Notes: generated by a model from the letters alone, not told the origin. Numbered from the stretch's first letter, positions 485-56,360 are shown. The stretch is 64,000 bases of DNA from an uncultured virus (IMG/VR IMGVR_UViG_3300038520_001826) (IMGVR_UViG_3300038520_001826); one strand, 5' to 3'. Made by a program: numbers and translations.

Positions 485-670
485 TCATATTTTCACCTTC
501 TTTGATTTTAGGTATGCTTGGTATGGGCGCATTCCTAGACCCAGTAATTCTTGGTATTTTTCAACCCGTTTTGCTTCGTATTTTATTGTCCTATTCAGAA
601 ACTCAGGTTTATACAACCTATGATTCATCTCAGGAATTATATCTTTCATAAATTTCGTCATTACAACCAC
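485..670 (-). CDS. small hypothetical protein
   Basis: ORF in a tightly packed minus-strand run; no recognisable motif. Confidence 0.45.
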   Translation of the reverse strand: MVVMTKFMKDIIPEMNHRLYKPEFLNRTIKYEAKRVEKYQELLGLGMRPYQAYLKSKKVKI

Positions 671-848
671 TACATACTGTTATTATTATTTCTGATTCTT
701 CAACAGAATCAAACTCACTACTGATTATTCTCAAATTGTGAGTTGCAGGAAGGAAACACACATGACATCTTATCTTAGGTTTCCTTGTGAATATTTCTTT
801 GCTTAATATATTATTTAACCATTTTAACATAATTATCACCCATAGGGC

Positions 849-925
849 GGGGAAAACGACTTCACAAGTTACGATTGCTATCTCCGTGATTCGCAAAATT
901 TTGTCGTTATTACTGGATAAACCCC
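849..925 (-). ncRNA. candidate structured RNA motif, copy 1
   Basis: GGGG/CCCC and AACGAC/GUCGUU stems around a UUUAUCCAGUAAU loop; shared with 4142-4213 with compensatory changes. Confidence 0.5.
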
Positions 926-1177
926 TAAAGGGTGGAGGAAAACATTGGCGATGACTAGAACCCACTATGCCAAACATTTTTAATTTTAAACCTCCGTTCC
1001 CAACAAGGTCTGAAGAGGCCCAAACAATAAGCCTATAACCTTAATTGGAATTTGAAATACTGTTCGTATGCTTCTATTAACTTACGAACAGGTTTGTCCT
1101 TGTACTGTAACAATACAGCATGGAACGTTTTAATTAATTCCAATAAATATTCTGCATTGTCATTGTGTTTTGAATCA

Positions 1178-1405
1178 TCAATCAACACTTTCTACACCTT
1201 CATCATCACTACGAAAAACTTCGTCGCATTCGCATTCATATTCATTTTTCCATTCACCATTTGAAATGCAAATTCTGCAAAACGGAATTGAATTACCACA
1301 ATAAACCCATCTTTTCAGATAAAGCATTTCTTCTTCGGCATCTTGTTCCGCACGTTCTTTACGAAACTTTACATCTTCTTCCTCGATGTTTAGATTTCCA
1401 TTCAT
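1178..1405 (-). CDS. small Cys-containing hypothetical protein
   Basis: GAGGTGA RBS upstream of ATG; CxxC and CxC residues. Confidence 0.6.
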   Translation of the reverse strand: MNGNLNIEEEDVKFRKERAEQDAEEEMLYLKRWVYCGNSIPFCRICISNGEWKNEYECECDEVFRSDDEGVESVD

Positions 1406-1414
1406 AGTTTCACC

Positions 1415-1738
1415 TCAAAATGATTTACCATGCATAAATTCACGGCTTTGATTATATTCAACTTTTGCAAGTATAGCACCTGCAATATCTAAATCTTTAC
1501 CAAATGCATAATCCATAATACGAATAACTGCATCAGCAAGTTCTTCTTCAAGATTACTAAACTCAATAATCTTATTTGAAGAAGGATTACCTTCACGTAA
1601 AGCCTCTAAAGCCTCACTGATTTCAGCATGAATTAAAGCCATTCTTTCGCCATCATTCACTTCATCTTTCCAGAATCCATGATTAACTGCGTTTTTGTAG
1701 ACTTCTTTTGCTAATTTATTCCATTCCCTTTCGAACAT
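1415..1738 (-). CDS. MazG-like NTP pyrophosphohydrolase
   Basis: ALIHAEISEALEA...EEELADAVIRIMD all-alpha NTP-PPase motif; start re-assigned to MFERE at 1738. Confidence 0.85.
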   Translation of the reverse strand: MFEREWNKLAKEVYKNAVNHGFWKDEVNDGERMALIHAEISEALEALREGNPSSNKIIEFSNLEEELADAVIRIMDYAFGKDLDIAGAILAKVEYNQSREFMHGKSF

Positions 1739-1922
1739 TTCTTTTCGCCTCATCTTCTTGAATAAACATCTTTGCAGTTTCCATACACTTATCATAAGTG
1801 TTTTCGTTAATGTTTTCACCACGTTGAACCTTTAGACTAAAAATCCAATCTGCAATTTTCTTCGCTGATGCACCATCTTCTATCATGGCGGCTAATTGAC
1901 TCATTTTACCCATTTTAATCAC
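1716..1922 (-). CDS. hypothetical protein
   Basis: ORF with AGGTGA RBS in the minus-strand gene run. Confidence 0.55.
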   Translation of the reverse strand: MIKMGKMSQLAAMIEDGASAKKIADWIFSLKVQRGENINENTYDKCMETAKMFIQEDEAKRNVRKGME

Positions 1923-2185
1923 CTACATAGAATTGTCTTCTTGAATTGCTTTCCACAATCAAGACATTCACAATACACAATTCCTTCTTCAAAATCTTCT
2001 TCAATGTAAAAGAATTCTTTGTGTTCACACTTCATTCTTCTCACACTCACAAAGATGTTCTTTCGTTCTCCAAGCATCAACAAAACTAACGCTACAATCA
2101 CCATCGTATTTCACGCTAATTCCACATTTGCACTTCATTTCCGTTATATTTACATATCTATTTTTCAACATTTTTTCATCTCCAT

Positions 2186-2392
2186 TTAAGCCGCAGGTGG
2201 GTATTTATAATGATAATAATTATCATTAATGCTACTATCCCACATTGCTTGTTCAATTCTGTTCCTTTCTTGTTCTAGTTCATACATTTGATATTGTGGA
2301 CTATTCCAACACCAGTTGATTGCCCATTGCAATTGTTCATACCAAAATGTTTCCCAGTAATGAGGAAGGATTCTATACCAAAGTTCAAACAT
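2186..2392 (-). CDS. Trp/Tyr-rich hypothetical protein
   Basis: ORF in the minus-strand run; no motif. Confidence 0.45.
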   Translation of the reverse strand: MFELWYRILPHYWETFWYEQLQWAINWCWNSPQYQMYELEQERNRIEQAMWDSSINDNYYHYKYPPAA

Positions 2393-2671
2393 AAAACCTA
2401 TAATTATCCCTCCATAATTCTATCATAACAATCCATACAGGAAAATTCCTCAATAAACCATTCTTTCTCTTCTTTACAAAAATAACATTCCATTCCTATC
2501 CCTCCAAGATTGATTCGAGATAATCTCCAAGAAGGGAAATAACATAATTAACTCCTCTATCTTCTTGAATAATACTCAATAAGTCTTCTAATATCTCATC
2601 AATATCTTCCTGCATTGCTTCTTCTTTTAAATGTTTTAGTGCTTCTAAATAAGTGTTCATCTTTTTTCACC

Positions 2672-4105
2672 TCATTGTGCTGGTTTTGGCCCACAATAAT
2701 ACAAATTCTTCTTTGCTCTTGTAATAGCCACATAACAAATGTTCATCTCTTCTTGCATATCAGTAGCCTTTGGATGTGGCATACGTTCTGTTGCAAGAAT
2801 ATAAACATTATCTGCCTCAAGACCCTTGGCCTTGTGGACTGTTGAAAGCATGATTTCACCTTTTTCATTTCCGTCAAAAACACGCTTAATTTCTGCAATA
2901 ACACCACCAACAGTTGATGCCTTTGTTGCAAAAATACGAATACATTCAAACTTATCTTCTAGCGTTTGTGCTTGATTTATCTTGTTTAGTTTGACCAAAC
3001 GCTGATAATTGTATTGGAAATCTTGTTCTAAGAGAACCGAGAATTCTTCAGAACCCATGTTCTTATTCTTGGTAATCTTATTTACTGCATTAATCAGTCC
3101 TTTTGTCATATCTCGACCAAGAACGTAAGCAGATTTACCTTGCATAATCAAATCGTAAAATGCACTAACCAAAGGAGCATTGTATCTACATAGAACCATA
3201 TCTCCATCTTGAGGATTAAACGGTGCATTTTCCATAACTCGACCTTCAATCGCATCTTCTTTGCATTCAAATTCCTTGACAAATCGGTTTGCTTCAGAAA
3301 CAACAGATTTTGGACAACGCCATGTCAAGGACAAAGAGAATTCCTTAACTTCTCGACCACGACTTTCCAATTCCTTCTTAAAGATAGAAATTGAATTACT
3401 ATCAGCACCTCGGAAACCGTAAATTGCTTGGTTTCTATCGCCAACAATGACTACTCGGTTATTACCGACACATCGAAGAATCATCTGTCTTTGCATTTCA
3501 TTGAAGTCTTGTGCTTCATCAACAAATAGAACATCAAATTGTGGTAATGGGAAATTCTCAACCAAAGGAATCCAAATCATGTCATCAAAATCAATCATAG
3601 CAAGATTACGTCGGCATTCCTTAAGAATGGCAGGAATCGCTTCAATAGCCATTTGTTCTTCTCGGTCTGATTCAAAGTTAATGTTGTAACGGTCAATCAA
3701 TCCAAAGATTGATTTACGGTCATTTCCTTCAACCATAGAACCCTTGATTAGACCAATTAACTTACAAAGTGGTGCGGCATGGAAATCCTTACCGAGAACA
3801 TCATTAATGATATTCTTAACCTTGAAGTTATTTACTCTTGTTTTAATACCTGCTGAACGAATAGCAGCAAATCCAAGTGCATGGAATGTTTTTGCTTCTA
3901 CATTGTCTGGTAGTCTTTCTGCGAGTTCTGTTTGAATGGACTTGTTAAAACAAAGAAAAGCCATATTATTTCCCTTTGTTCTGTTTCCACCTTCAACAAT
4001 TGTAAATGTTTTACCAGTGCCAGCACCAGCATTTACAATTACATCTCCTGTCCCATTAGCAAGTTCATGCCAAATCGCTTCTTGTTGTTTTGTTCCTGTT
4101 ATCAT
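2672..4105 (-). CDS. superfamily 1 (UvrD/Rep-like) helicase
   Basis: AGAGTGKT Walker A, VDEAQD Walker B, VGDRNQAIYGFRGA, TWRCP, STVHKAKGLEAD, YVAITRAK. Confidence 0.95.
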   Translation of the reverse strand: MITGTKQQEAIWHELANGTGDVIVNAGAGTGKTFTIVEGGNRTKGNNMAFLCFNKSIQTELAERLPDNVEAKTFHALGFAAIRSAGIKTRVNNFKVKNIINDVLGKDFHAAPLCKLIGLIKGSMVEGNDRKSIFGLIDRYNINFESDREEQMAIEAIPAILKECRRNLAMIDFDDMIWIPLVENFPLPQFDVLFVDEAQDFNEMQRQMILRCVGNNRVVIVGDRNQAIYGFRGADSNSISIFKKELESRGREVKEFSLSLTWRCPKSVVSEANRFVKEFECKEDAIEGRVMENAPFNPQDGDMVLCRYNAPLVSAFYDLIMQGKSAYVLGRDMTKGLINAVNKITKNKNMGSEEFSVLLEQDFQYNYQRLVKLNKINQAQTLEDKFECIRIFATKASTVGGVIAEIKRVFDGNEKGEIMLSTVHKAKGLEADNVYILATERMPHPKATDMQEEMNICYVAITRAKKNLYYCGPKPAQ

Positions 4106-4141
4106 TATTTTTACCTCCTTATTTAGAGTAGAATATAGAAT

Positions 4142-4213
4142 GAGGAAACTGCTTCATGTAATGCGGCCACTATCTCCGTTTGTGTATTTTGCAGTTATTA
4201 CTGGATAAACCTC
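4142..4213 (-). ncRNA. candidate structured RNA motif, copy 2
   Basis: GAGG/CCUC and AACUGC/GCAGUU stems around the same UUUAUCCAGUAAU loop and ACGGAGAUAG segment. Confidence 0.5.
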
Positions 4214-4313
4214 GTGAAAGGGCGGAGAAGGAGCAATACAGATAATTAAAGTGCGGAGGTAATTATCTGTTTATCGTCTAAACGGCCACCTTTGCTACAA
4301 CTTCTCCATGAAG

Positions 4314-4397
4314 TGTGGGAAGTGGGATTTGAACCCACGAAGCAATTCGCACAGGATTTTAAGCCCTGCTCCTTTGACCAAACTCGGATATCCCCAC
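4314..4397 (-). tRNA. tRNA-Leu (anticodon UAA)
   Basis: Acceptor GUGGGGA/UUCCCAC, anticodon stem CAGGG-CUUAAAA-UCCUG, long variable arm, T-arm GUGGG-UUCAAAU-CCCAC; no encoded CCA. Confidence 0.93.
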
Positions 4398-4560
4398 AGA
4401 TTAATGAGTTAATGTCAAAGATACTTACAAATACGATTTAATGTCGTTATCTGAAGTAAATCACTATTTACAACTACTCCGAGGCTGACCCCTATTTAAA
4501 GAGTCCGAGGTGAGCGAACACCTTATTTTTTAAGAACTAATTGTGCCACAATAGGCGAAA

Positions 4561-4643
4561 AAGAGAGAGAAAACCAAGAAATGTGCGGGAGGGTTATGAC
4601 GACCTGAGAGGTAAAATGATTTATTACTGCACAAAACTCTCTT
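4561..4643 (-). ncRNA. candidate structured RNA motif, divergent copy 3
   Basis: GAGAG/CUCUC closing stem with GUUUUGUGCAGUAAUAA loop, matching the CAGUAAUAA core of copies 1 and 2. Confidence 0.35.
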
Positions 4644-4735
4644 GAAAAGGAATGAGGGGAAGCCTGAACTTCCCCCCATTCGGACATCATTAGATTAAAT
4701 CTAATGATTTACAACTTAGAAACTTTAAATCAAAT

Positions 4736-5215
4736 TCAAAGTTCTTCGGTTGTTTCAGTAGAAAGTAGGGCATCTACTGAACCATCCCAAGTTCCAGCCT
4801 TGTATTGGCTGTTAAGGGAGTTTCGTGTCTTCTTAACCCAAGAAGCAGCAAATTCTTCTGCGGACTCATATTGACCGCCACCAGACTTTGCGTGTTTAAC
4901 GGAGATTGCTCCGATAATTGGGTCATGGTTGTAATAAGCCATAATAGCCTCTTCAACAACGCCACAAATTCTGTCAGTAGCAACACGGACTGCGGCAGGA
5001 ATACTGCTCTTTTGTCCTCGACGGAACGGAGTTCCATCTCTTCCCTTCAATAGAGCCTTAAGTGCGTTATGTGCCGCATCTCGCTCATTTGGGTTTTCTG
5101 TTCCTACTTGAAGGTGCAACTGCACGATTTGTCGCAATCCACCGTCAAGGGCGGAATCTGCTTCCAAATACTCTTCAACTTCAATCTTCAAACTGTTCCA
5201 ATTCATATCATCCAT
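4736..5215 (-). CDS. hypothetical protein, paralog family A (member 1)
   Basis: RRGQKSSIPA, HAKSGG and Y..GTWDG shared with 6028, 7455 and 9577; start probably MDDMNW, downstream of a TTATATA box near 5260-5266. Confidence 0.8.
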   Translation of the reverse strand: MDDMNWNSLKIEVEEYLEADSALDGGLRQIVQLHLQVGTENPNERDAAHNALKALLKGRDGTPFRRGQKSSIPAAVRVATDRICGVVEEAIMAYYNHDPIIGAISVKHAKSGGGQYESAEEFAASWVKKTRNSLNSQYKAGTWDGSVDALLSTETTEEL

Positions 5216-5304
5216 ATGTATCAACTTCTGCCCGTAGGCGAAGTTCCATAGATTGACCATATATAAGCGATAACAAATCCAAACCCTCGATTCATTCCTG
5301 AACA

Positions 5305-5930
5305 TCATTCTAATCTTTCTAAACTTTCTAAAGTTTTTTCTTAGTCAATTCTATTCCATCAATCAATTCATGCAAAAAAACAACCAATGTGGTTTTCAAA
5401 CCAATAAAAATTAATTGATATTTTTACAAATAACATTTTAGATTAATAAATTCTGATGTTTCTAATCGAGGCGAGGTTATTCTAAAACGATTAAATAATG
5501 GGTTGTGCAACACAGCCTAGAAGAAAATTGGCGAAACCGTCATTTTGGCAACATTTTTCTTTTTTCTAATTTTCTAACGACCCCCATAGAGATTCTATAT
5601 CTCCCATAGGGTAATTCTGTAATAAGTAATAAGTCACACACATAATAGTAGTAGTAGTAAGTATTAGAATATTAGAATATTNNNNNNNNNNTTTCCTTCT
5701 GTTACACAACCCTCCAGTTTCTCAAGGTTTGTTTTATTCTAACGACCTCACTGACCTTAGAATAATGTTTTACTTTAATTATAGTATAATTATATCTTAT
5801 ACGATATTGTATATGTATATCCTATACATATAAGACCAATTGAAACATACCCTTTGAAAAGATATTCAGGATTGGTATTAACATTTGATACCTATGTAGT
5901 GTTAAGTTGATAGTATGTAATTAGGTGAAA
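5305..5930. other. AT-rich non-coding region with TTCTAA repeats; candidate replication origin or genome-end region
   Basis: No ORFs; many TTCTAA/TTAGAA hexamers; inverted repeat 5500-5512/5700-5712; lies between divergent transcription units; contains N gap 5682-5691. Confidence 0.4.
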
Positions 5931-49059: not shown

Positions 49060-50193
49060 ATGTATCAAGTATTAGCAGGTAAGAAAAGAAGTTTAGTCTT
49101 TCCTGTTATGTGTAATGGTTTTGTTAAACTAGATTATTCGGATAATGTAGTTGATACAAATAATGATGGAGATACATCCAATGATATTGCTTATGGATTA
49201 TTTGACCATGAAGGTTCATTTACTTTTGAAGCAATTGTTACGCCATATGATATTAACGGTTATGGTCGTCAAAGTGCAAGTGGCACTATTCCTAGTTTTA
49301 CACTAAGTAAAAAAATAATGCCATCGAATAGTCATCAATCCACAACTGCGAATTATCAAAGTGAACTTTATCTTCCCGTTAGTGGTGGAAGATTGACACA
49401 TGAAATGAGAATATTTAGTAATGATAAATTTTCTGTTTCTTTACTTAATGCTACTTCGTTTAATGAGAATCAACCTGCTGAATATAAGATAAGAGTTTCG
49501 ATGGATATTGGGGGAACAACTGAAACCTTTACTACTACAAGTGCAGTTATTACTGCTAATAAGAGTTCTATGTTCAAATGGAGTTCTACCTCCGATACTG
49601 AAGGATTTGACAGTAATGGTCGAAGAACATTTGATTTGCTAGGCTCGACTACCTCGCATAGCGGTGCTGTTATCGGTCTTTCTGGTACAGTAGAAAATCA
49701 GTGCCATGCGAGCCAAGAACTCTTCATTAGGGATGGTTTTACGTTCACGTCTATTGGTACTATTGCTAGCGTAACGGGTACGACGAGCGTTACTCTTAGC
49801 GCTTCATATTCTCCGACCTTGAGTAATGGAACAAAGGTGTTTATTCATTCTAGGAAGGAGGCTTCTTACATTAACAACACCTATCACATTGCTTGCACAT
49901 ACACTCAATCAAGTAATAGAATCAATATTTTCCTAAATGGAATTAATGTTTTAAGCACTAAGCATACTCAATCAGGAACATTTGCTTTTGGTAGAACAGA
50001 TAGTTTTATTGGGGCTAACGGAACAGGTGCAACAGGAACATTATCAGCAATAACAAATAAACAATTTATGGGAGAGATGCATGAAATGTCTATCTTAAAT
50101 ATTCCTAAAACAACGTTTGTAAATAAAGAGAATCTTTTACCAAGCCTTAACAACACATTACTTTATCTTAGATTTGAGGAGATTGATTTATAA
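49060..50193 (+). CDS. tail protein with LamG/concanavalin-like domain
   Basis: SFTFEAIV...YHIACTY...IFLNG...FMGEMHE. Confidence 0.7.
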   Translation: MYQVLAGKKRSLVFPVMCNGFVKLDYSDNVVDTNNDGDTSNDIAYGLFDHEGSFTFEAIVTPYDINGYGRQSASGTIPSFTLSKKIMPSNSHQSTTANYQSELYLPVSGGRLTHEMRIFSNDKFSVSLLNATSFNENQPAEYKIRVSMDIGGTTETFTTTSAVITANKSSMFKWSSTSDTEGFDSNGRRTFDLLGSTTSHSGAVIGLSGTVENQCHASQELFIRDGFTFTSIGTIASVTGTTSVTLSASYSPTLSNGTKVFIHSRKEASYINNTYHIACTYTQSSNRINIFLNGINVLSTKHTQSGTFAFGRTDSFIGANGTGATGTLSAITNKQFMGEMHEMSILNIPKTTFVNKENLLPSLNNTLLYLRFEEIDL

Positions 50194-53100
50194 TGGCAAT
50201 CAAAGTCTTTCAAAAAGGTGAAACTACTTTTAGTAGTGGCAATGGATATAAAACTCCTACTAATCCTCTAATTGAATCGAATACTAGTTTTGGTTCTACG
50301 GATAGGTTATTTACTTTAATTTATCCTGATGATTCTACATCAAGTGAGACTTTTGTAGAAGTAGGAACATCTAGTGAAAATACAGAAAGAAACAATTTGC
50401 AGACTACAAAAGGTTTTAGAATCAAATGTTTTGATAGTATTACTTCAACAGGTGTTCAATTAACAGGTGGTAATTATGATAGTGCTTTTCATTACTTTGT
50501 CTTGATACATTCGGATGACCACCTAAAGCATCATTTTGCGAGAGTAACAGACATTATTACAGAAGATGTCGTTGGAGATGCCTTTGAATTTACACCAGCA
50601 TTAGGTAAAGAAATACCTAAAGATACAAAGTTTATGTTATTTAAAGGCCCAGCATTGACTACTACTGCAATTGCTTTTTCAGCAGGGATTAAGCAAGACC
50701 TAAAAGCCTCCCTAGTTGTTTCATCTCCATTATTTCATCTGCTAGAATCTTCTTTAAATAAGAAGAATGAATTAGACCACAATACAAAATACTTTGTTAG
50801 ACTAAACAAAACAGATAGTGGGGGTACGACAACACTAGATACTAATTCAGAAGAATATACATTTGTTACAGAGCAAGAGTTTTCAAATAAAATTTTAGAT
50901 TATAGCAAATATTCAATGCAATTGACTTTAGTTGATAAGTTAAAGGATTTAGATAATCCAAGCACACACACTTCTAATGAAGGTAATACTATCAACAGTT
51001 TAGACTATACTGATTATGACGATGCTTTTCCTAATGCTAGAAGAGATAATGATGATTTAATAAATCCAACTTCTCAAATTGTTAATGAAGGCCCTATTAG
51101 ATATTTACATTATGATTTTTCTCCAACAAAAGTCAATGTATTAGATAACGTAATTGATAATAAATTAGAACAGTCTATTGGAAATCGTGGAGGATTCTGT
51201 GAAACTAAAATTATGAATCCTAGTAGAATGCTTACAAGCAAAATTACTGAGTTCGATAAGTATAGAGTCAGACATAGAGTATTTACAGGAGATTTGAATG
51301 AATTCGTTGATATGAAAATTACATTAGGTTCTCTTATTACAACCTTTAGCGATGCTAGATATAACTTAATAACTGATTATTCTGATGCAACTAATTTTAT
51401 TAATGTAGGAGATGAGATTAGGATTGGTAATAGAATTTTAATATGTGCGATTATTACATCTTCTGTAATTAAGTTTGAAGAATACAGTAGATTAGAAACA
51501 GAATCCTCTTTTACTAATTCAACTAGTTTAACCTCCTTAACAGGAACATTGCAAAGAAGGGCTTATAATTACCAAGATAATACAATTCTAACTTCATTCA
51601 ATCTACTTGCAGGTAGGAGTTCGGAATTATATGTAAAAACTATGTCAAAAGATATGGAATTTATTGAATCGTCTGTAACTGCTGTTGATGCTACTCATGG
51701 ACTAATTACACTAAGTTCTAATTCTCAAAGTTATTCTTCTGATTCTTCGCTTAGATATTCTTTAGGTTCTTATCATATAGAAGTAGAGAGGTTTTCTGGA
51801 ACAATTGAAAAGGTTGATTCATATAAAGAAGATTCGCAGAACTATGTAGAACTTTCTGGAAGAAGCGATATTAGTAAATTATTTGGGCCAATTATTAATA
51901 AAGATACTGCATTTTCAGAAGATATTATTTATTCTACTTTGAGTCCATATAATACTTTATCACAGATTGATTCAACTAATTTTACATTAGCGTTGGGAGC
52001 CACCTCCTTGGCAACAGGAGTCAATGCTGCTGATTTTGACATATTACCAGTAGTAGGCAATAGGTTATTTACCGTTAATGGCTTTATAGGCGAAGTAAAT
52101 ACTGTTAGTGCTGGCGACCCTAAAACAATCACATTGGTTTCGGGTGCTTTGACAAAAGTTCATTCTGAAAAGATATATGTAGAAACAGATAAAAACTATA
52201 TGTTTAATAAAGCATTAAGTTCATCTCATCTAGCATCAGTTAATCCAACATCATTAAGTGGTTCTGCGGGTAAAGGAGTTTTCTTTACAAGCGGTAAAGA
52301 AATTACAATGTCTGATGGTTCAGAAGGAAATGATTTAGTCGGGAGTAGTATCAATACAAACCCGAAAGCAATTGGCTATCATATTAACAGTCCAGTATCA
52401 ATTAAAAATGATAATGCTTTTCAAGCAAAGTTTGTAGATGAAATAGGAAGCGAATCAAATTCTTCATTTGATACTGTTAATACTTTAATTGATTTTGAAA
52501 TAGTTAGTTTAGAAAAGAAAGAAAACGAATCAACTATTGTTTTAGCCCCCTATCTTCCTATTACTTTAGGAAGAAAACTACCTAATTATGGAAATGCATC
52601 CTCTTATACTTTAACAGAAGAAGCAACAATACAAAATACTGATTTGGGTTCTGGAAATACACTAAATACTTTTATTCCCAGTGCAATAGAAACTGTTACT
52701 GATGGTATTAAGGACTTTGATTATGGAGATGCAGTATTCATCGGTGCTGATTCGAATTCTGCTCGGTTTGCTGGATTTATCAACGAATTTATTTTCGTTA
52801 CTGGGCAACCTAATTATGGGCCAGCAATCATCTTAGATAGAAATGTCACTCCCGTTACTGGAGAAAAAGTATTTTCAGTGGTTAAAGATACTCATGATTT
52901 ATTTTTCGTTAATGGAAAGCATCTTTGGGGAGGTAAAATTCTAACAATGCCTCATCCAAAGATTACTTCAAGTGGTGCAGTTCCAGTAAATTTTAAAAAT
53001 ATATATTCTTCAAACACTGATATTGCGAAAAAATATGGACAAATGTACTATAAACTATTAAGTGTTTCTGATGGAGAATTTAACGTGCTTAATTCTAAAT

Positions 53101-56100
53101 CCACTATCTTTTCTGATTCTCAGAATAAAACCTATGAAAATGCTTCTAAATTAAAACACCATGCAGTATCTTATAAATTCTCTCCTAAAACTTCTAGTGA
53201 TAATACTAACGAATATGATAAAACTGGTACTGGTGACGATATTCAAATGGATTTAGATATGAGGGGAATTGATTCTACCTATGGTAGTAATTTCTCTGAA
53301 AGAAATATAAGACTTCAAAGAACTTTATTGCAGAATAAATACCCAAATGATTTTAGCACTTCAAATCTAACAAAGGTTGAAGAATTAAAAAGTGATTTAG
53401 ACCAAAAAGACACTTCTGCTGCTAATCTTTTCTTTTATATTAATAGTGATATTCTTCCATATTCTTCTCTAAGAAAAGATAGTTTAATGAATTCAAGTAA
53501 AGTATTAAATAATTATAACTTATTACTTATCGAAAACAAAAAAGCATCTGATGAAGAATTAGAATACACAGAAACTAGTACTGGAAAAGTTAAAAACTTA
53601 AATGATAATTCATTCCAAACACTAACTTTAAACTCCAATAAAGATATTAGTTCGCTTAAAAGGTTTGGCATAATGAGATTAACCGAATTATGCTTTGATT
53701 CTCAGTTTAATGCATTTAACCCAGAAAAACCAACCATTGATGATAAAAATCACTTAAGAGTTGCAGACTTTGATGCATATAGATTTACTGACACTTCTAA
53801 TACAATTGATGTCGCTCAAAGCATTATCGCTGGTAATGATAAAATAGTTTTACAGTCTTCTGTTGGTAGTACGCCTACAAACGGAGAAGTGTACTATGAT
53901 TCAAACTATAGATTAATAGGTATTGTAAGTTCATATAATTCTTCTACTAGAACAATTACATTTAGTACTAATACTGTAAGAAACTCAGAAAATAGTTTTA
54001 CTGCTGGAACTTTATATAAACAAAATGCTAAAATAGATGTTAATATCAAAGGAGCAAAAGACTCCAATACCTTTATAACTTTAGATAGAGCGCATTTACA
54101 AAAAGGTGCATTAGTTACTGAAAATTATGCAAGTCATGGAAGTGATTTTTGGGCACAAAATGCAAATAATCACAGCCAAGTTTTAAGTTTTTCCAGCACA
54201 GATAGAGTAGTTTTACCCCTTAGATTTCAACATTCAAATTCATCAGTTATCGCTACTACACCTTATCCCCAAGTTCCAAGTAGAGTATTTAGATATATGC
54301 TTGAATCAGCAGGAAATATTTTTGACCAATGTAAAGCAGTTGTTTTAGATACTTATACAATAGAACAGGGTGGATTAGTAGATGTTGAAAATGGATTAGC
54401 AATCCCATCAATAGGTATAAATTTAGAGCAATTCAATGATGTTACTAGTGAAAATACTATTTTATTTACTTTAGAAAACAATCAACGAACTTTTGGACTA
54501 GAATACCCGCAAGACTATGGGGTTTCAACAACAACAGGATTACAGGTAGTTGGTTCTGGAGGAAACACTATGGAAGTAATGGGAGCAAAATTAGGTTTTT
54601 GTCCAAGGTTACATTATGTTGCTGCTGACCATGATACTGCTACTACTGTAAATTCATCAAATGGGACATTACATTCAGTTGGATTAAATGCAATTACCAC
54701 TGGTCACGGTTGGTTAGATTTTGTTGATTTAACTGGATGTTATTTGGTTTCGGAAAGCGGGTTTGATACTGATTTAAAATCAACATCAACAACTGGAGGA
54801 AGCGATGCCACTGATATGAGAAGATTAGATAATGTTATTCCAGAAGATATTATTTATATTCTTTCTCACGAAATAAATAATAGTGGCACTGTCAAACATA
54901 ATTTGACCACTGATAAGGCATTGACTAATAATAGAGCATATAGAATAATGAAACCTAATGAAATTGCCTTTCATGAAAACTCACCGAAAAAAATCTCTTT
55001 AAATATGCTATCAGGAAAATATACTAAGCAATCAAATTCAGATGAAATGTATTCTCCCTCCCAAGATTTTGCTATTAAAGAAGGGTCAAGACAGAAATCT
55101 GATTCAGGACTAGGACCAATTCAAGAGGCTATTCTTTCAATGTATGTTGCTGTGGATTTAGATAAACAAAGTAGCAGTGAAGATTATATTGTAATGAGAA
55201 AGGCAAAGAACTTTATTGACATTTTGCCTGAAGGAAATCATTCATTATATATGAGCGATGGAGAAAATAATCAACTTACTTCCATAGTTGTCAATGAAAA
55301 TACGGACTTTACAACTGAAAAACAAATTATACTTACTTTTGGCGAAATTAAGGAAATGCATGGCGTTGTTAGCGTTTCTGAAACATTTTCTGTTACTTCT
55401 AATAATACAATAGAAATATCACCAGATAGAGCCTGTATTGGAACAACCGTTACAATTGCAAATGAAACAGAAGAACTTATCAATGAACTCATGGAGGAAA
55501 ATGACATAGTATTTGATTTAGAAACTCAAGATTATCCATTATACTTAGCACCTAATTATCAAGGAGTTGATTTATTTTCAGCAATTAACTTCTTACTTGA
55601 GCGAAAAGATTTAACCCTTTTTGAAGAAAATGGCACATTTAAAATCAAAGATAGATTGGCAAATGATTTCTTTAAAGGCATTGTTCTTAATGAAACTGGA
55701 GAGTATCAGATATTTGATTTTGAAGAATCAAAGAATATGTTTAATTTCTATAATCAAATTACGGTCTATGGAAGAAACCATAAAAAGATTAGAAAAGATA
55801 TTAGAAGCATCAATGATGTCGGTTTGAAAGCATTTGAAGTATTTAATACGGAACTTACGACACAAGAAGATGTAAATAAGGAAGCATCAGCATTACTTAA
55901 ATTACATTCCTCATCAAACAAAAAACTAAAAATTACTGTCGGACATTCTAAGATTTCACAAATAAAGGTAGGAGATATAATCAATGTTGAAATACCTAGA
56001 GAAAATATTCCGCTTTCTCAATTTATGGTATTACAAATAGAATATTTACTTACTGGATTAATGGTATTAGAACTAGGAAAGTATAGTAAGGGATTGGAAG

Positions 56101-56360
56101 ATAGATTTGCTGATTTGATTATACAGAATAAAAGGATTAATTCTCAATTGAGAAACGAATCTTTTAAAGAATCAGAAAGTTTAGACTTCTTGGAAGAACT
56201 AAAAATTAATCAAATAAGACTATTCGCTAGAAAGAGAACATCTTCGGGAACGTTCAAGTTAGGTTTTGGAACAGCATTAAATACGGGAACAAATACGCTT
56301 GGTCATGGGGTCGGCACAGGCATTACATTCACTACTTTGATAGATGAGGAATTAATATGA
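50193..56360 (+). CDS. large tail tip / hub / receptor-binding protein
   Basis: 2055 aa, S/T/N-rich; C-terminal NQITVYG...IKVGDIINV hub-like motifs. Confidence 0.75.
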   Translation: MAIKVFQKGETTFSSGNGYKTPTNPLIESNTSFGSTDRLFTLIYPDDSTSSETFVEVGTSSENTERNNLQTTKGFRIKCFDSITSTGVQLTGGNYDSAFHYFVLIHSDDHLKHHFARVTDIITEDVVGDAFEFTPALGKEIPKDTKFMLFKGPALTTTAIAFSAGIKQDLKASLVVSSPLFHLLESSLNKKNELDHNTKYFVRLNKTDSGGTTTLDTNSEEYTFVTEQEFSNKILDYSKYSMQLTLVDKLKDLDNPSTHTSNEGNTINSLDYTDYDDAFPNARRDNDDLINPTSQIVNEGPIRYLHYDFSPTKVNVLDNVIDNKLEQSIGNRGGFCETKIMNPSRMLTSKITEFDKYRVRHRVFTGDLNEFVDMKITLGSLITTFSDARYNLITDYSDATNFINVGDEIRIGNRILICAIITSSVIKFEEYSRLETESSFTNSTSLTSLTGTLQRRAYNYQDNTILTSFNLLAGRSSELYVKTMSKDMEFIESSVTAVDATHGLITLSSNSQSYSSDSSLRYSLGSYHIEVERFSGTIEKVDSYKEDSQNYVELSGRSDISKLFGPIINKDTAFSEDIIYSTLSPYNTLSQIDSTNFTLALGATSLATGVNAADFDILPVVGNRLFTVNGFIGEVNTVSAGDPKTITLVSGALTKVHSEKIYVETDKNYMFNKALSSSHLASVNPTSLSGSAGKGVFFTSGKEITMSDGSEGNDLVGSSINTNPKAIGYHINSPVSIKNDNAFQAKFVDEIGSESNSSFDTVNTLIDFEIVSLEKKENESTIVLAPYLPITLGRKLPNYGNASSYTLTEEATIQNTDLGSGNTLNTFIPSAIETVTDGIKDFDYGDAVFIGADSNSARFAGFINEFIFVTGQPNYGPAIILDRNVTPVTGEKVFSVVKDTHDLFFVNGKHLWGGKILTMPHPKITSSGAVPVNFKNIYSSNTDIAKKYGQMYYKLLSVSDGEFNVLNSKSTIFSDSQNKTYENASKLKHHAVSYKFSPKTSSDNTNEYDKTGTGDDIQMDLDMRGIDSTYGSNFSERNIRLQRTLLQNKYPNDFSTSNLTKVEELKSDLDQKDTSAANLFFYINSDILPYSSLRKDSLMNSSKVLNNYNLLLIENKKASDEELEYTETSTGKVKNLNDNSFQTLTLNSNKDISSLKRFGIMRLTELCFDSQFNAFNPEKPTIDDKNHLRVADFDAYRFTDTSNTIDVAQSIIAGNDKIVLQSSVGSTPTNGEVYYDSNYRLIGIVSSYNSSTRTITFSTNTVRNSENSFTAGTLYKQNAKIDVNIKGAKDSNTFITLDRAHLQKGALVTENYASHGSDFWAQNANNHSQVLSFSSTDRVVLPLRFQHSNSSVIATTPYPQVPSRVFRYMLESAGNIFDQCKAVVLDTYTIEQGGLVDVENGLAIPSIGINLEQFNDVTSENTILFTLENNQRTFGLEYPQDYGVSTTTGLQVVGSGGNTMEVMGAKLGFCPRLHYVAADHDTATTVNSSNGTLHSVGLNAITTGHGWLDFVDLTGCYLVSESGFDTDLKSTSTTGGSDATDMRRLDNVIPEDIIYILSHEINNSGTVKHNLTTDKALTNNRAYRIMKPNEIAFHENSPKKISLNMLSGKYTKQSNSDEMYSPSQDFAIKEGSRQKSDSGLGPIQEAILSMYVAVDLDKQSSSEDYIVMRKAKNFIDILPEGNHSLYMSDGENNQLTSIVVNENTDFTTEKQIILTFGEIKEMHGVVSVSETFSVTSNNTIEISPDRACIGTTVTIANETEELINELMEENDIVFDLETQDYPLYLAPNYQGVDLFSAINFLLERKDLTLFEENGTFKIKDRLANDFFKGIVLNETGEYQIFDFEESKNMFNFYNQITVYGRNHKKIRKDIRSINDVGLKAFEVFNTELTTQEDVNKEASALLKLHSSSNKKLKITVGHSKISQIKVGDIINVEIPRENIPLSQFMVLQIEYLLTGLMVLELGKYSKGLEDRFADLIIQNKRINSQLRNESFKESESLDFLEELKINQIRLFARKRTSSGTFKLGFGTALNTGTNTLGHGVGTGITFTTLIDEELI

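Follow-up and report, generated by a model that had tools for sequence, protein, structure and literature searches.

An uncatalogued structured-RNA family in replication-gene leaders of marine tailed phages

Introduction

Among the closest described systems are the translational operators of T4 replication genes, which include the gene 32 leader pseudoknot and the RegA and gp43 operators. Here, a structured RNA motif is described from the minus strand of IMGVR_UViG_3300038520_001826, a stretch of 64,000 nucleotides (nt) of DNA from an uncultured virus (the window, to whose full length all coordinates without a locus handle refer). Like the T4 operators, the motif is a phage-only 5′-leader element of replication genes with a likely pseudoknot near the ribosome-binding site and several targets per genome. 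It is an uncatalogued structured-RNA family of phage leaders, ∼75-110 nt long and probably pseudoknotted.

A large set of 10,006 unnamed phage and virus structured-RNA candidates was reported by Fremin, Bhatt and Kyrpides (2023; PMC10690425). That set was likewise drawn from IMG/VR data and holds covarying structures ≤25 nt upstream of phage genes, among them candidates that precede GP32 in IMG/VR phages. The motif strings were absent from the part of the supplements that was searched (files 1, 2 and 4, Supplementary Table 1 and the other largest files lay outside that part), and the portion of the main text covered names no helicase- or clamp-associated candidate. The motif may be among the 10,006 candidates.

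A covarying RNA motif in two copies

A sequence-only reading of the window had proposed a structured motif in three copies. Copies 1 and 2 were recovered by the covariance models of the family at 76-78 bits (E ∼1e-15). Copy 3 reached 14.3 bits (E 0.65-0.78) and no more than resembles the other two. The copies and their parts are as follows.

849..925, minus strand: copy 1, family-model match; helix P1 925-922 with 852-849; J1/2 conserved strand 921-909; helix P2 908-903 with 860-855; A-rich linker 902-886; GGAGAUA 885-879; hairpin P4 878-875 with 867-864; GAA 863-861
4142..4213, minus strand: copy 2, family-model match; P1 4213-4210 with 4145-4142; J1/2 4209-4197; P2 4196-4191 with 4152-4147; linker 4190-4178; GGAGAUA 4177-4171; P4 4170-4168 with 4158-4156; GAA 4155-4153
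4561..4643, minus strand: copy 3, look-alike with CAGUAAUAA; possible P1 GAGAG/CUCUC

The first covariance model was built from 26 hand-checked sequences and scored copy 1 at 77.6 bits (E 1.7e-15) and copy 2 at 75.9 bits (E 4.1e-15). The rebuilt model (R2), which was then used to align 81 matches, gave 75.9 and 76.3 bits, and both copies belong to the family. Copy 3 was present in the window and two close relatives only (L392, L415). It could form P1, P2 and GUGC/GCAC pseudoknot pairs analogous to those of copies 1 and 2, and is a look-alike that was not counted as a member.

The identity of the 5′ loop in copies 1 and 2 was seen as described earlier: the 17-mer GTTTATCCAGTAATAAC occurs twice exactly on the minus strand, at 922-906 and 4210-4194, and ACGGAGAUAG is also common to both. 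By chance 0.25 matches to the 17-mer would be expected at ≤3 mismatches, and two were reached in 2 of 100 shuffles. The compensatory changes reported between the two copies were likewise present, in the outer stems (GGGG/CCCC in copy 1, GAGG/CCUC in copy 2) and in the inner stems (AACGAC/GUCGUU and AACUGC/GCAGUU). Folding of the single sequences recovered both stems, with energies unremarkable against background (z -0.08 and +0.30). The other CAGTAATAA sites of the window (13242, 38199, 44556 and 49547) were set aside as unrelated, the remaining parts of the motif being absent there.

In 5′ to 3′ order the motif comprises P1, a conserved 13-nt strand (UUUAUCCAGUAAU), P2, the A-rich linker, GGAGAUA, hairpin P4 and GAA, followed by the 3′ strand of P2, 0-2 nt and the 3′ strand of P1. 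P2 has 6 base pairs (bp) and starts with AA; the linker consists of AAAA and 9-50 variable nt. P1 has at least 4 bp, of which 4 were modelled, and extends to 10-13 bp by eye in L170-L172. In the lineage with the motif before a sliding-clamp-like gene an extra helix, P0, covaries by eye (AGUAAC/GUUACU, GUGAC/GUCAC, UUACAC/GUGUAA).

Pairing was counted over the 61 distinct sequences of the family. Standard pairs made up 98.6% of 1037 pair cells, compared with 80.4% in shuffles and 48-57% with slid partners. Changes on both sides occurred in 10 of the 17 pairs, giving 188 double-change cells, a count equalled in 0/500 shuffles; covariation in homologues, as foreseen for a structured RNA, was thus found. 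Pairing in P2 was complete (100% of cells), with covariation at four of the six pairs through as many as six pair types. The first pair of P4 was G-U in 42 sequences, G-C in 16 and A-U in 3 (n = 61), and the frequency of G-U there indicates an RNA on the sense (gene) strand. Because the alignment had been fitted by the model, the pair count was repeated on 26 sequences aligned by MAFFT without regard to structure, in which 99.2% of cells were paired with 74 double-change cells (0/500 shuffles as high). RNAalifold predicted P1 and P2 from the MAFFT alignment unaided. The motif is a genuine structured RNA.

A pseudoknot is likely between the conserved UUUAUCC and GGAGAUA, for which two registers are possible. 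In the register UCC:GGA, C-G is replaced by A-U in L355:1136-1214 and L474, two very different members, and a U-G arises in L540, with one clear violation (L441). The register UAUC:GAUA, which had been proposed earlier, is broken in five clear variant rows (L474, L350:1055-1133, L319:882-960, L477 and L174/L190) and is probably wrong. UCC:GGA is favoured, on counts that are small and with neither register convincingly above controls.

Two other readings of the conserved blocks were considered. A micro-ORF (open reading frame), with GGAG followed by AUG inside the motif, was rejected: several members have ACG or GUG in place of the 'AUG', whose bases pair in P4. A promoter inside the motif was sought, and no sigma-70-like arrangement was seen, the scan being not above shuffles.

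A separate observation concerns AGUAAUAAC, which spans J1/2 and the start of P2, is conserved in all members and can be read as three consecutive A-R-N triplets. The triplets are retained in the divergent L305, L321:285-364 and L355:1136-1214. We take such a run to be an Hfq distal-face binding pattern.

Membership and distribution of the family

The family comprises 81 matches, 61 of them distinct, from marine viral and metagenome contigs. An exact 16-mer was found in 47 IMG/VR loci, of which 18 held the whole motif by eye and the rest were chance. Two-block patterns in IMG/VR gave the motif in 21 of the 33 distinct stretches printed, and in the JGI metagenome collection a two-block pattern gave strong model matches in 38 of 49 loci, all from marine samples. 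A looser pattern added members that vary in the conserved blocks. Contigs carry 1-3 copies, in some cases as tandem pairs ∼10 nt apart.

Among prokaryotes (185,579 species, one genome each), 85 loci matched the pattern and only L256 matched the covariance model. L256 is a 9-kb phage-like contig binned in a metagenome-assembled genome (MAG), near-identical to phage contigs. None of the remaining 84 loci, which served as a specificity control, matched the model. The window and three whole contigs of other lineages have ∼10 core genes in common in conserved order, which places the family in one clade of marine phages. The distribution of the motif is phage-only and confined to one clade of marine tailed phages. 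Cultured relatives were sought by blastn, which returned short MazG-gene matches only and none that was close. Since the terminase and helicase of the window are ≤34% identical to those of isolates, no host could be named.

The absence of a known class, as the sequence-only reading had it, was upheld by Rfam 15, which gave no family match to the motif at gathering scores or at E up to 10. At gathering scores tRNA was the sole match in the window. Over 600-5400 at E up to 10, no family was matched at the three copies except for a chance-level RsaJ match at 750-910, which overlaps copy 1 (14.8 bits, E 3.8; gathering score 100). For 14 further loci at E up to 10 only tRNAs were matched at or near the motif. 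The motif strings were also searched in the literature, with no related paper among the matches listed.

Position of the motif relative to genes

The model match ends 14-34 nt 5′ of a start codon preceded by a Shine-Dalgarno (SD) sequence on the same strand in 44 of the 61 distinct copies. The SD follows 1-20 nt past P1 or P0, with no U-tract terminator by eye. What follows the motif, as counts of the 61 copies, is listed here.

253-amino-acid (aa) family, 17/61
UvrD-like helicase, 11/61
66-92-aa cysteine-rich family, 10/61
two other small-protein families, 6/61
193-aa family, 2/61
singleton ORFs, 3/61
second motif copy, 6/61
no ORF call, 6/61 (one without flank; two being the tRNA contexts of L355)

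The motif-linked genes (sliding-clamp-like, UvrD-like helicase, small proteins) all lie in replication modules, and a clamp loader, a Sak4-like ATPase and a processivity factor are encoded near the motif. The 253-aa family (L173:1658-2416 and 16 relatives) had no Pfam or PHROG match. Its AlphaFold model has a pLDDT (predicted local distance difference test score) of 61 with a confident N-terminal domain, and was matched by Foldseek to DnaN sliding clamps at E 1.5e-7 with a template modeling (TM) score of 0.55; a sliding-clamp-like fold is predicted from this model. The same gene family follows very divergent motif copies (L474 and L501 compared with L173).

As the sequence-only reading had noticed, copies 1 and 2 of the window lie just upstream of gene starts (ATG 830 and ATG 4105), and copies 2 and 3 flank a tRNA, which lies at 4397-4313. 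The features concerned are these.

633..830, minus strand: 66-aa small cysteine-rich ORF, ATG at 830, 18 nt past copy 1
2672..4105 including the stop codon, minus strand: UvrD-like superfamily 1 DNA helicase (phrog_1967, E 1.9e-96; PF00580)
4313..4397, minus strand: tRNA-Leu(TAA), between copies 3 and 2
933..996, minus strand: simpler hairpin directly 5′ of copy 1; 13.6-14.1 bits against the family models, E ∼0.9
4224..4307, minus strand: long imperfect hairpin between the tRNA-Leu and copy 2; -22.9 kcal/mol, z -2.0

The SD of the 66-aa ORF, GGGUGAU (841-835), starts 8 nt past P1 of copy 1, and the ORF, which belongs to the 66-92-aa family listed above, had no Pfam or PHROG match. The helicase ATG lies 36 nt past P1 of copy 2. 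Several lineages have a tRNA-Leu(TAA) gene beside the motif. The window comes from a tailed phage, with terminase, portal, protease and major head genes on the plus strand. Its minus-strand replication module encodes the helicase, a MazG-like pyrophosphatase, a primase-like protein, ERCC4, a Cas4-like exonuclease and a polymerase-exonuclease.

The long hairpins that had been noted before copies 1 and 2 exist. They are lineage-specific neighbours outside the family core: neither occurs in other lineages, and in the sliding-clamp lineage the motif has no hairpin before it. The 4224-4307 hairpin is kept in the helicase lineage, with a covarying outer stem; two-sided changes were seen at 2 of the 7 pairs predicted. 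The 933-996 hairpin has the order GGAGG, UUUAAA..., AAAAUG, a variable hairpin, CAUUUU and CCUCC.

Several side observations were made on these and other parts of the window. The 4224-4307 element was also seen in L191, L345, L356, L210, L350, L319 and L318, where its outer and middle stems covary; it has a conserved internal GGGGC..AC.AA and an inner hairpin, and is without an Rfam match. The 933-996 hairpin is conserved in close relatives and was seen in the flanks of L184, L186, L208, L316, L329 and L349. It resembles the motif weakly, opening in the same way (GGAGGUUUA...) with the core absent, and may be a reduced motif paralogue. Two hairpins lie at 4655-4735 (minus strand) between a 190-aa ORF (5308-4739) and copy 3, one A/U-rich and the other G/C-rich with a U-rich tract, resembling an intrinsic terminator. 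An Rfam match to n00280, a Clostridioides difficile small RNA inside a helicase gene, was recorded at 2685-2771 (minus strand) at 33.8 bits, below the gathering score of 65.2; it sits at the 3′ end of the helicase ORF, which is conserved, and is probably due to the conservation of coding sequence. In the tail region, a 2055-aa ORF (50193-56357, plus strand) has almost no family match.

An interrupted tRNA and a relative without the motif

L355:956-1125 is a tRNA (54.1 bits against the Rfam tRNA model) that ARAGORN resolves only if the anticodon loop is allowed a 95-nt intron, and this intron is the motif. An uninterrupted orthologue, tRNA-Lys(UUU), was found at L554:351-425. The insertion prolongs the anticodon stem. 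Its boundary is ambiguous by one A, so the site is either 36/37 or 37/38, and the boundary chosen by ARAGORN gives the interrupted tRNA the anticodon UUA. An anticodon-loop interruption with an intact orthologue was found once, in L355 against L554; scanning of the other loci gave no further tRNA insertion, and 60 of the 61 distinct copies lie outside tRNAs. An exon search with the 5′ half of the L355 tRNA returned nothing, and the 3′ half found L554. In L321 the motif lies 11 nt past tRNA-Leu.

A near-identical relative of the window, G005 (L555, G005:53300-55200), was compared over 4050-4760 and has an identical tRNA-Leu, long hairpin and helicase start. It is without copy 2, the motif and leader being replaced by ∼30 nt with a different SD. 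In L210:2408-2470 a 14-nt mini hairpin stands where L304 has a full second tandem copy. These two absences mark the motif as an accessory, exchangeable module. The stem of the L210 mini hairpin is itself changed on both sides.

Discussion

Of the earlier proposals (cis-regulatory element, processing signal or small ribozyme), the first is favoured by the 14-34 nt distance of 44/61 copies from start codons. We consider it somewhat short of an even chance that the motif is an accessory cis-acting leader or operator, bound by a trans factor, that controls ribosome access. This reading is preferred on account of the SD-adjacent position, the recurrent replication-gene families and the phage-only distribution, the last of which fits a phage replication-module protein better than a metabolite. 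The motif would be transcribed on the gene strand within replication-module mRNAs, and its compact fold ends a few nt before the SD, inside the region that the 30S subunit must occupy. A trans factor recognising the conserved junction nucleotides may stabilise or occupy the fold, and would thereby govern how readily ribosomes reach the sliding-clamp, helicase or small-protein gene. By analogy, this would resemble the control of T4 replication genes at the mRNA level.

Several observations weigh against the leader or operator. An expression platform conserved across lineages was not seen by eye, no terminator was found 3′ of the motif, and alternative pairings that would sequester the SD are inconsistent between lineages (by eye). 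P1 of 10-13 bp, as in L170-L172, is too stable for a P1-switching riboswitch. A second motif copy, rather than a gene, comes next for six copies, and neither L355 copy precedes an ORF, one interrupting the tRNA-Lys and the other lying 45 nt before a tRNA-Leu. G005 keeps the same helicase gene without the motif, which is thus dispensable there. When shared gene content was searched for a binding protein, only core replication and structural genes emerged, and Pfam on the small neighbouring ORFs gave nothing RNA-related, so that no candidate was found. Finally, the database patterns required the two longest blocks, so that their apparent invariance is partly built in; the copies found by the model only (L305, L321:285-364 and L355:1136-1214) do show variation in these blocks.

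The motif could instead process RNA. That it is a small self-cleaving ribozyme of a new class, or a module recognised by an RNA-processing enzyme, cutting polycistronic early transcripts and so separating tRNAs and upstream RNA from the mRNA that follows, is unlikely, though much of the anatomy would suit it: a self-contained module with a closing stem of variable and sometimes long length, a compact pseudoknotted fold with conserved junction nucleotides, tandem copies, a phage-only distribution, tRNA genes adjoining it in several lineages (L321, L355) and, in L355, independence of a protein gene downstream. Phage ribozymes of the hammerhead and hepatitis delta virus (HDV)-like theta types occur in similar places. 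The tight start-codon spacing before a few gene families is, however, not usual among self-cleaving classes described so far, none of the known ribozyme models matched at E up to 10, and a single-site cleaver in the anticodon loop would destroy the L355 tRNA. The wider proposal of a new self-processing RNA class of ∼80-95 nt, self-cleaving or self-splicing and intron-like, that resides at position 37/38 of tRNA-Lys and in replication-gene leaders and comes and goes between near-identical phages, is rather less probable. An intron-like or mobile RNA, inserting into transcribed DNA including a tRNA anticodon loop and removed by self-splicing or by host or phage enzymes, is doubtful to a greater degree. 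It would account for the 95-nt insertion in L355 beside the intact L554 orthologue, for G005 lacking copy 2 despite identical flanks, for the L210 hairpin opposite the full copy of L304, and for the motif lying at different sites of the same module in different subclades. The tRNA insertion was nevertheless found at one scanned locus only, and the G005 difference is a cassette replacement that changes leader and SD, not a clean excision. Contigs with 1-3 copies, covarying stems and conserved loops are unlike recently transposed repeats, 75-110 nt is far below any known self-splicing intron, no group I model matched, and a position before the clamp gene that is kept across divergent members points to vertical descent.

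A stable stand-alone RNA acting in trans, for example as a protein decoy or sponge, liberated from the polycistronic transcript and in some cases with a tRNA as its scaffold, is improbable. The insulated module with its own closing stem, its place beside tRNAs and inside one whose anticodon stem it lengthens, its tandem copies and its dispensability in a close relative would agree with such a role; a role in cis is favoured by the short and constant spacing to start codons and by the recurrence of the same gene families, and neither a promoter nor a terminator belonging to the motif itself was seen (promoter scan not above shuffles). Processive antitermination, by an RNA like HK022 put that modifies RNA polymerase for terminator read-through in an early or replication operon, is very unlikely. 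It would need no expression platform and be indifferent to the following gene, and the motif does lie inside long co-directional operons at 1-3 copies per genome, in the lineage of the window after terminator-like or long hairpins. Yet the motif of the clamp lineage stands in an intergenic gap of ∼130 nt without a hairpin upstream, no conserved terminators were found downstream, and SD proximity is left unexplained; put RNAs are two stem-loops without this architecture. That there is no functional RNA at all, the similarity being a DNA-level repeat or chance, is strongly disfavoured. Single-copy minimum free energy z-scores are not significant, as that would predict, but three helices covary over 61 distinct sequences, the G-U pairs make the structure strand-specific, and 84 of 85 pattern-matching control loci fail the covariance model. 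A DNA repeat resembling a miniature inverted-repeat transposable element (MITE) was rejected on the 1-3 copies per contig, the covarying stems with constant loops and the lack of consistent flank duplication.

Comparison with known systems

Self-cleaving ribozymes of phages (pistol, twister, hammerhead and HDV-like theta) are similar to the motif in size, pseudoknotted fold, position beside tRNAs and tandem arrangement. The order of P2 5′ strand, A-rich strand, pseudoknot 3′ strand, hairpin, short junction and P2 3′ strand is one that we take to be pistol-like, and a P1 that encloses the whole motif is presumably unlike pistol or HDV-like folds. Rfam models of pistol, twister, hatchet, hammerhead and HDV-like ribozymes gave no match at E up to 10. 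The fixed spacing to start codons sets the motif apart from phage ribozymes. The L355 copy has in common with tRNA anticodon-loop introns (bacterial group I; archaeal and eukaryotic protein-spliced) its site at or next to 37/38 and the prolonged stem. A group I intron was rejected, the insertion having 95 nt against a P3-P9 core of at least ∼200 nt, with no Intron_gpI match, and no bulge-helix-bulge was seen by eye at the L355 insertion. Should the motif cleave or splice, it would represent either a new class of catalytic RNA or an intron-like element smaller than any other seen in a bacterial virus.

Metabolite riboswitches with H-type pseudoknots resemble the motif in their covarying variable stems around invariant junctions, their place in the 5′ untranslated region (UTR) and their tandem copies, and in conservation, covarying stems and 5′-UTR location the motif looks like a generic riboswitch aptamer. 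It differs from riboswitches in its absence from the bacterial genomes searched, in that no expression platform was recognised by eye and in a P1 that can be very long; clamp and helicase genes suggest no metabolite, and no Rfam riboswitch matched.

The T4-type operators agree with the motif in position and gene class. The motif is without sequence or model relationship to them, its downstream genes are not single-stranded DNA-binding protein (SSB) genes, and its core is larger, with three covarying helices and ∼25-30 conserved junction nucleotides. Three helices that covary over 61 distinct sequences, together with a natural pair of phages with and without it, define the motif well enough for in-vitro assays. 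Should it prove to be a regulator, the motif would offer a compact RNA handle on how an abundant, uncultured group of marine phages expresses its clamp, helicase and companion genes, a ready target for finding the protein or ligand, and a phage-only counterpart of the T4 translational operators.

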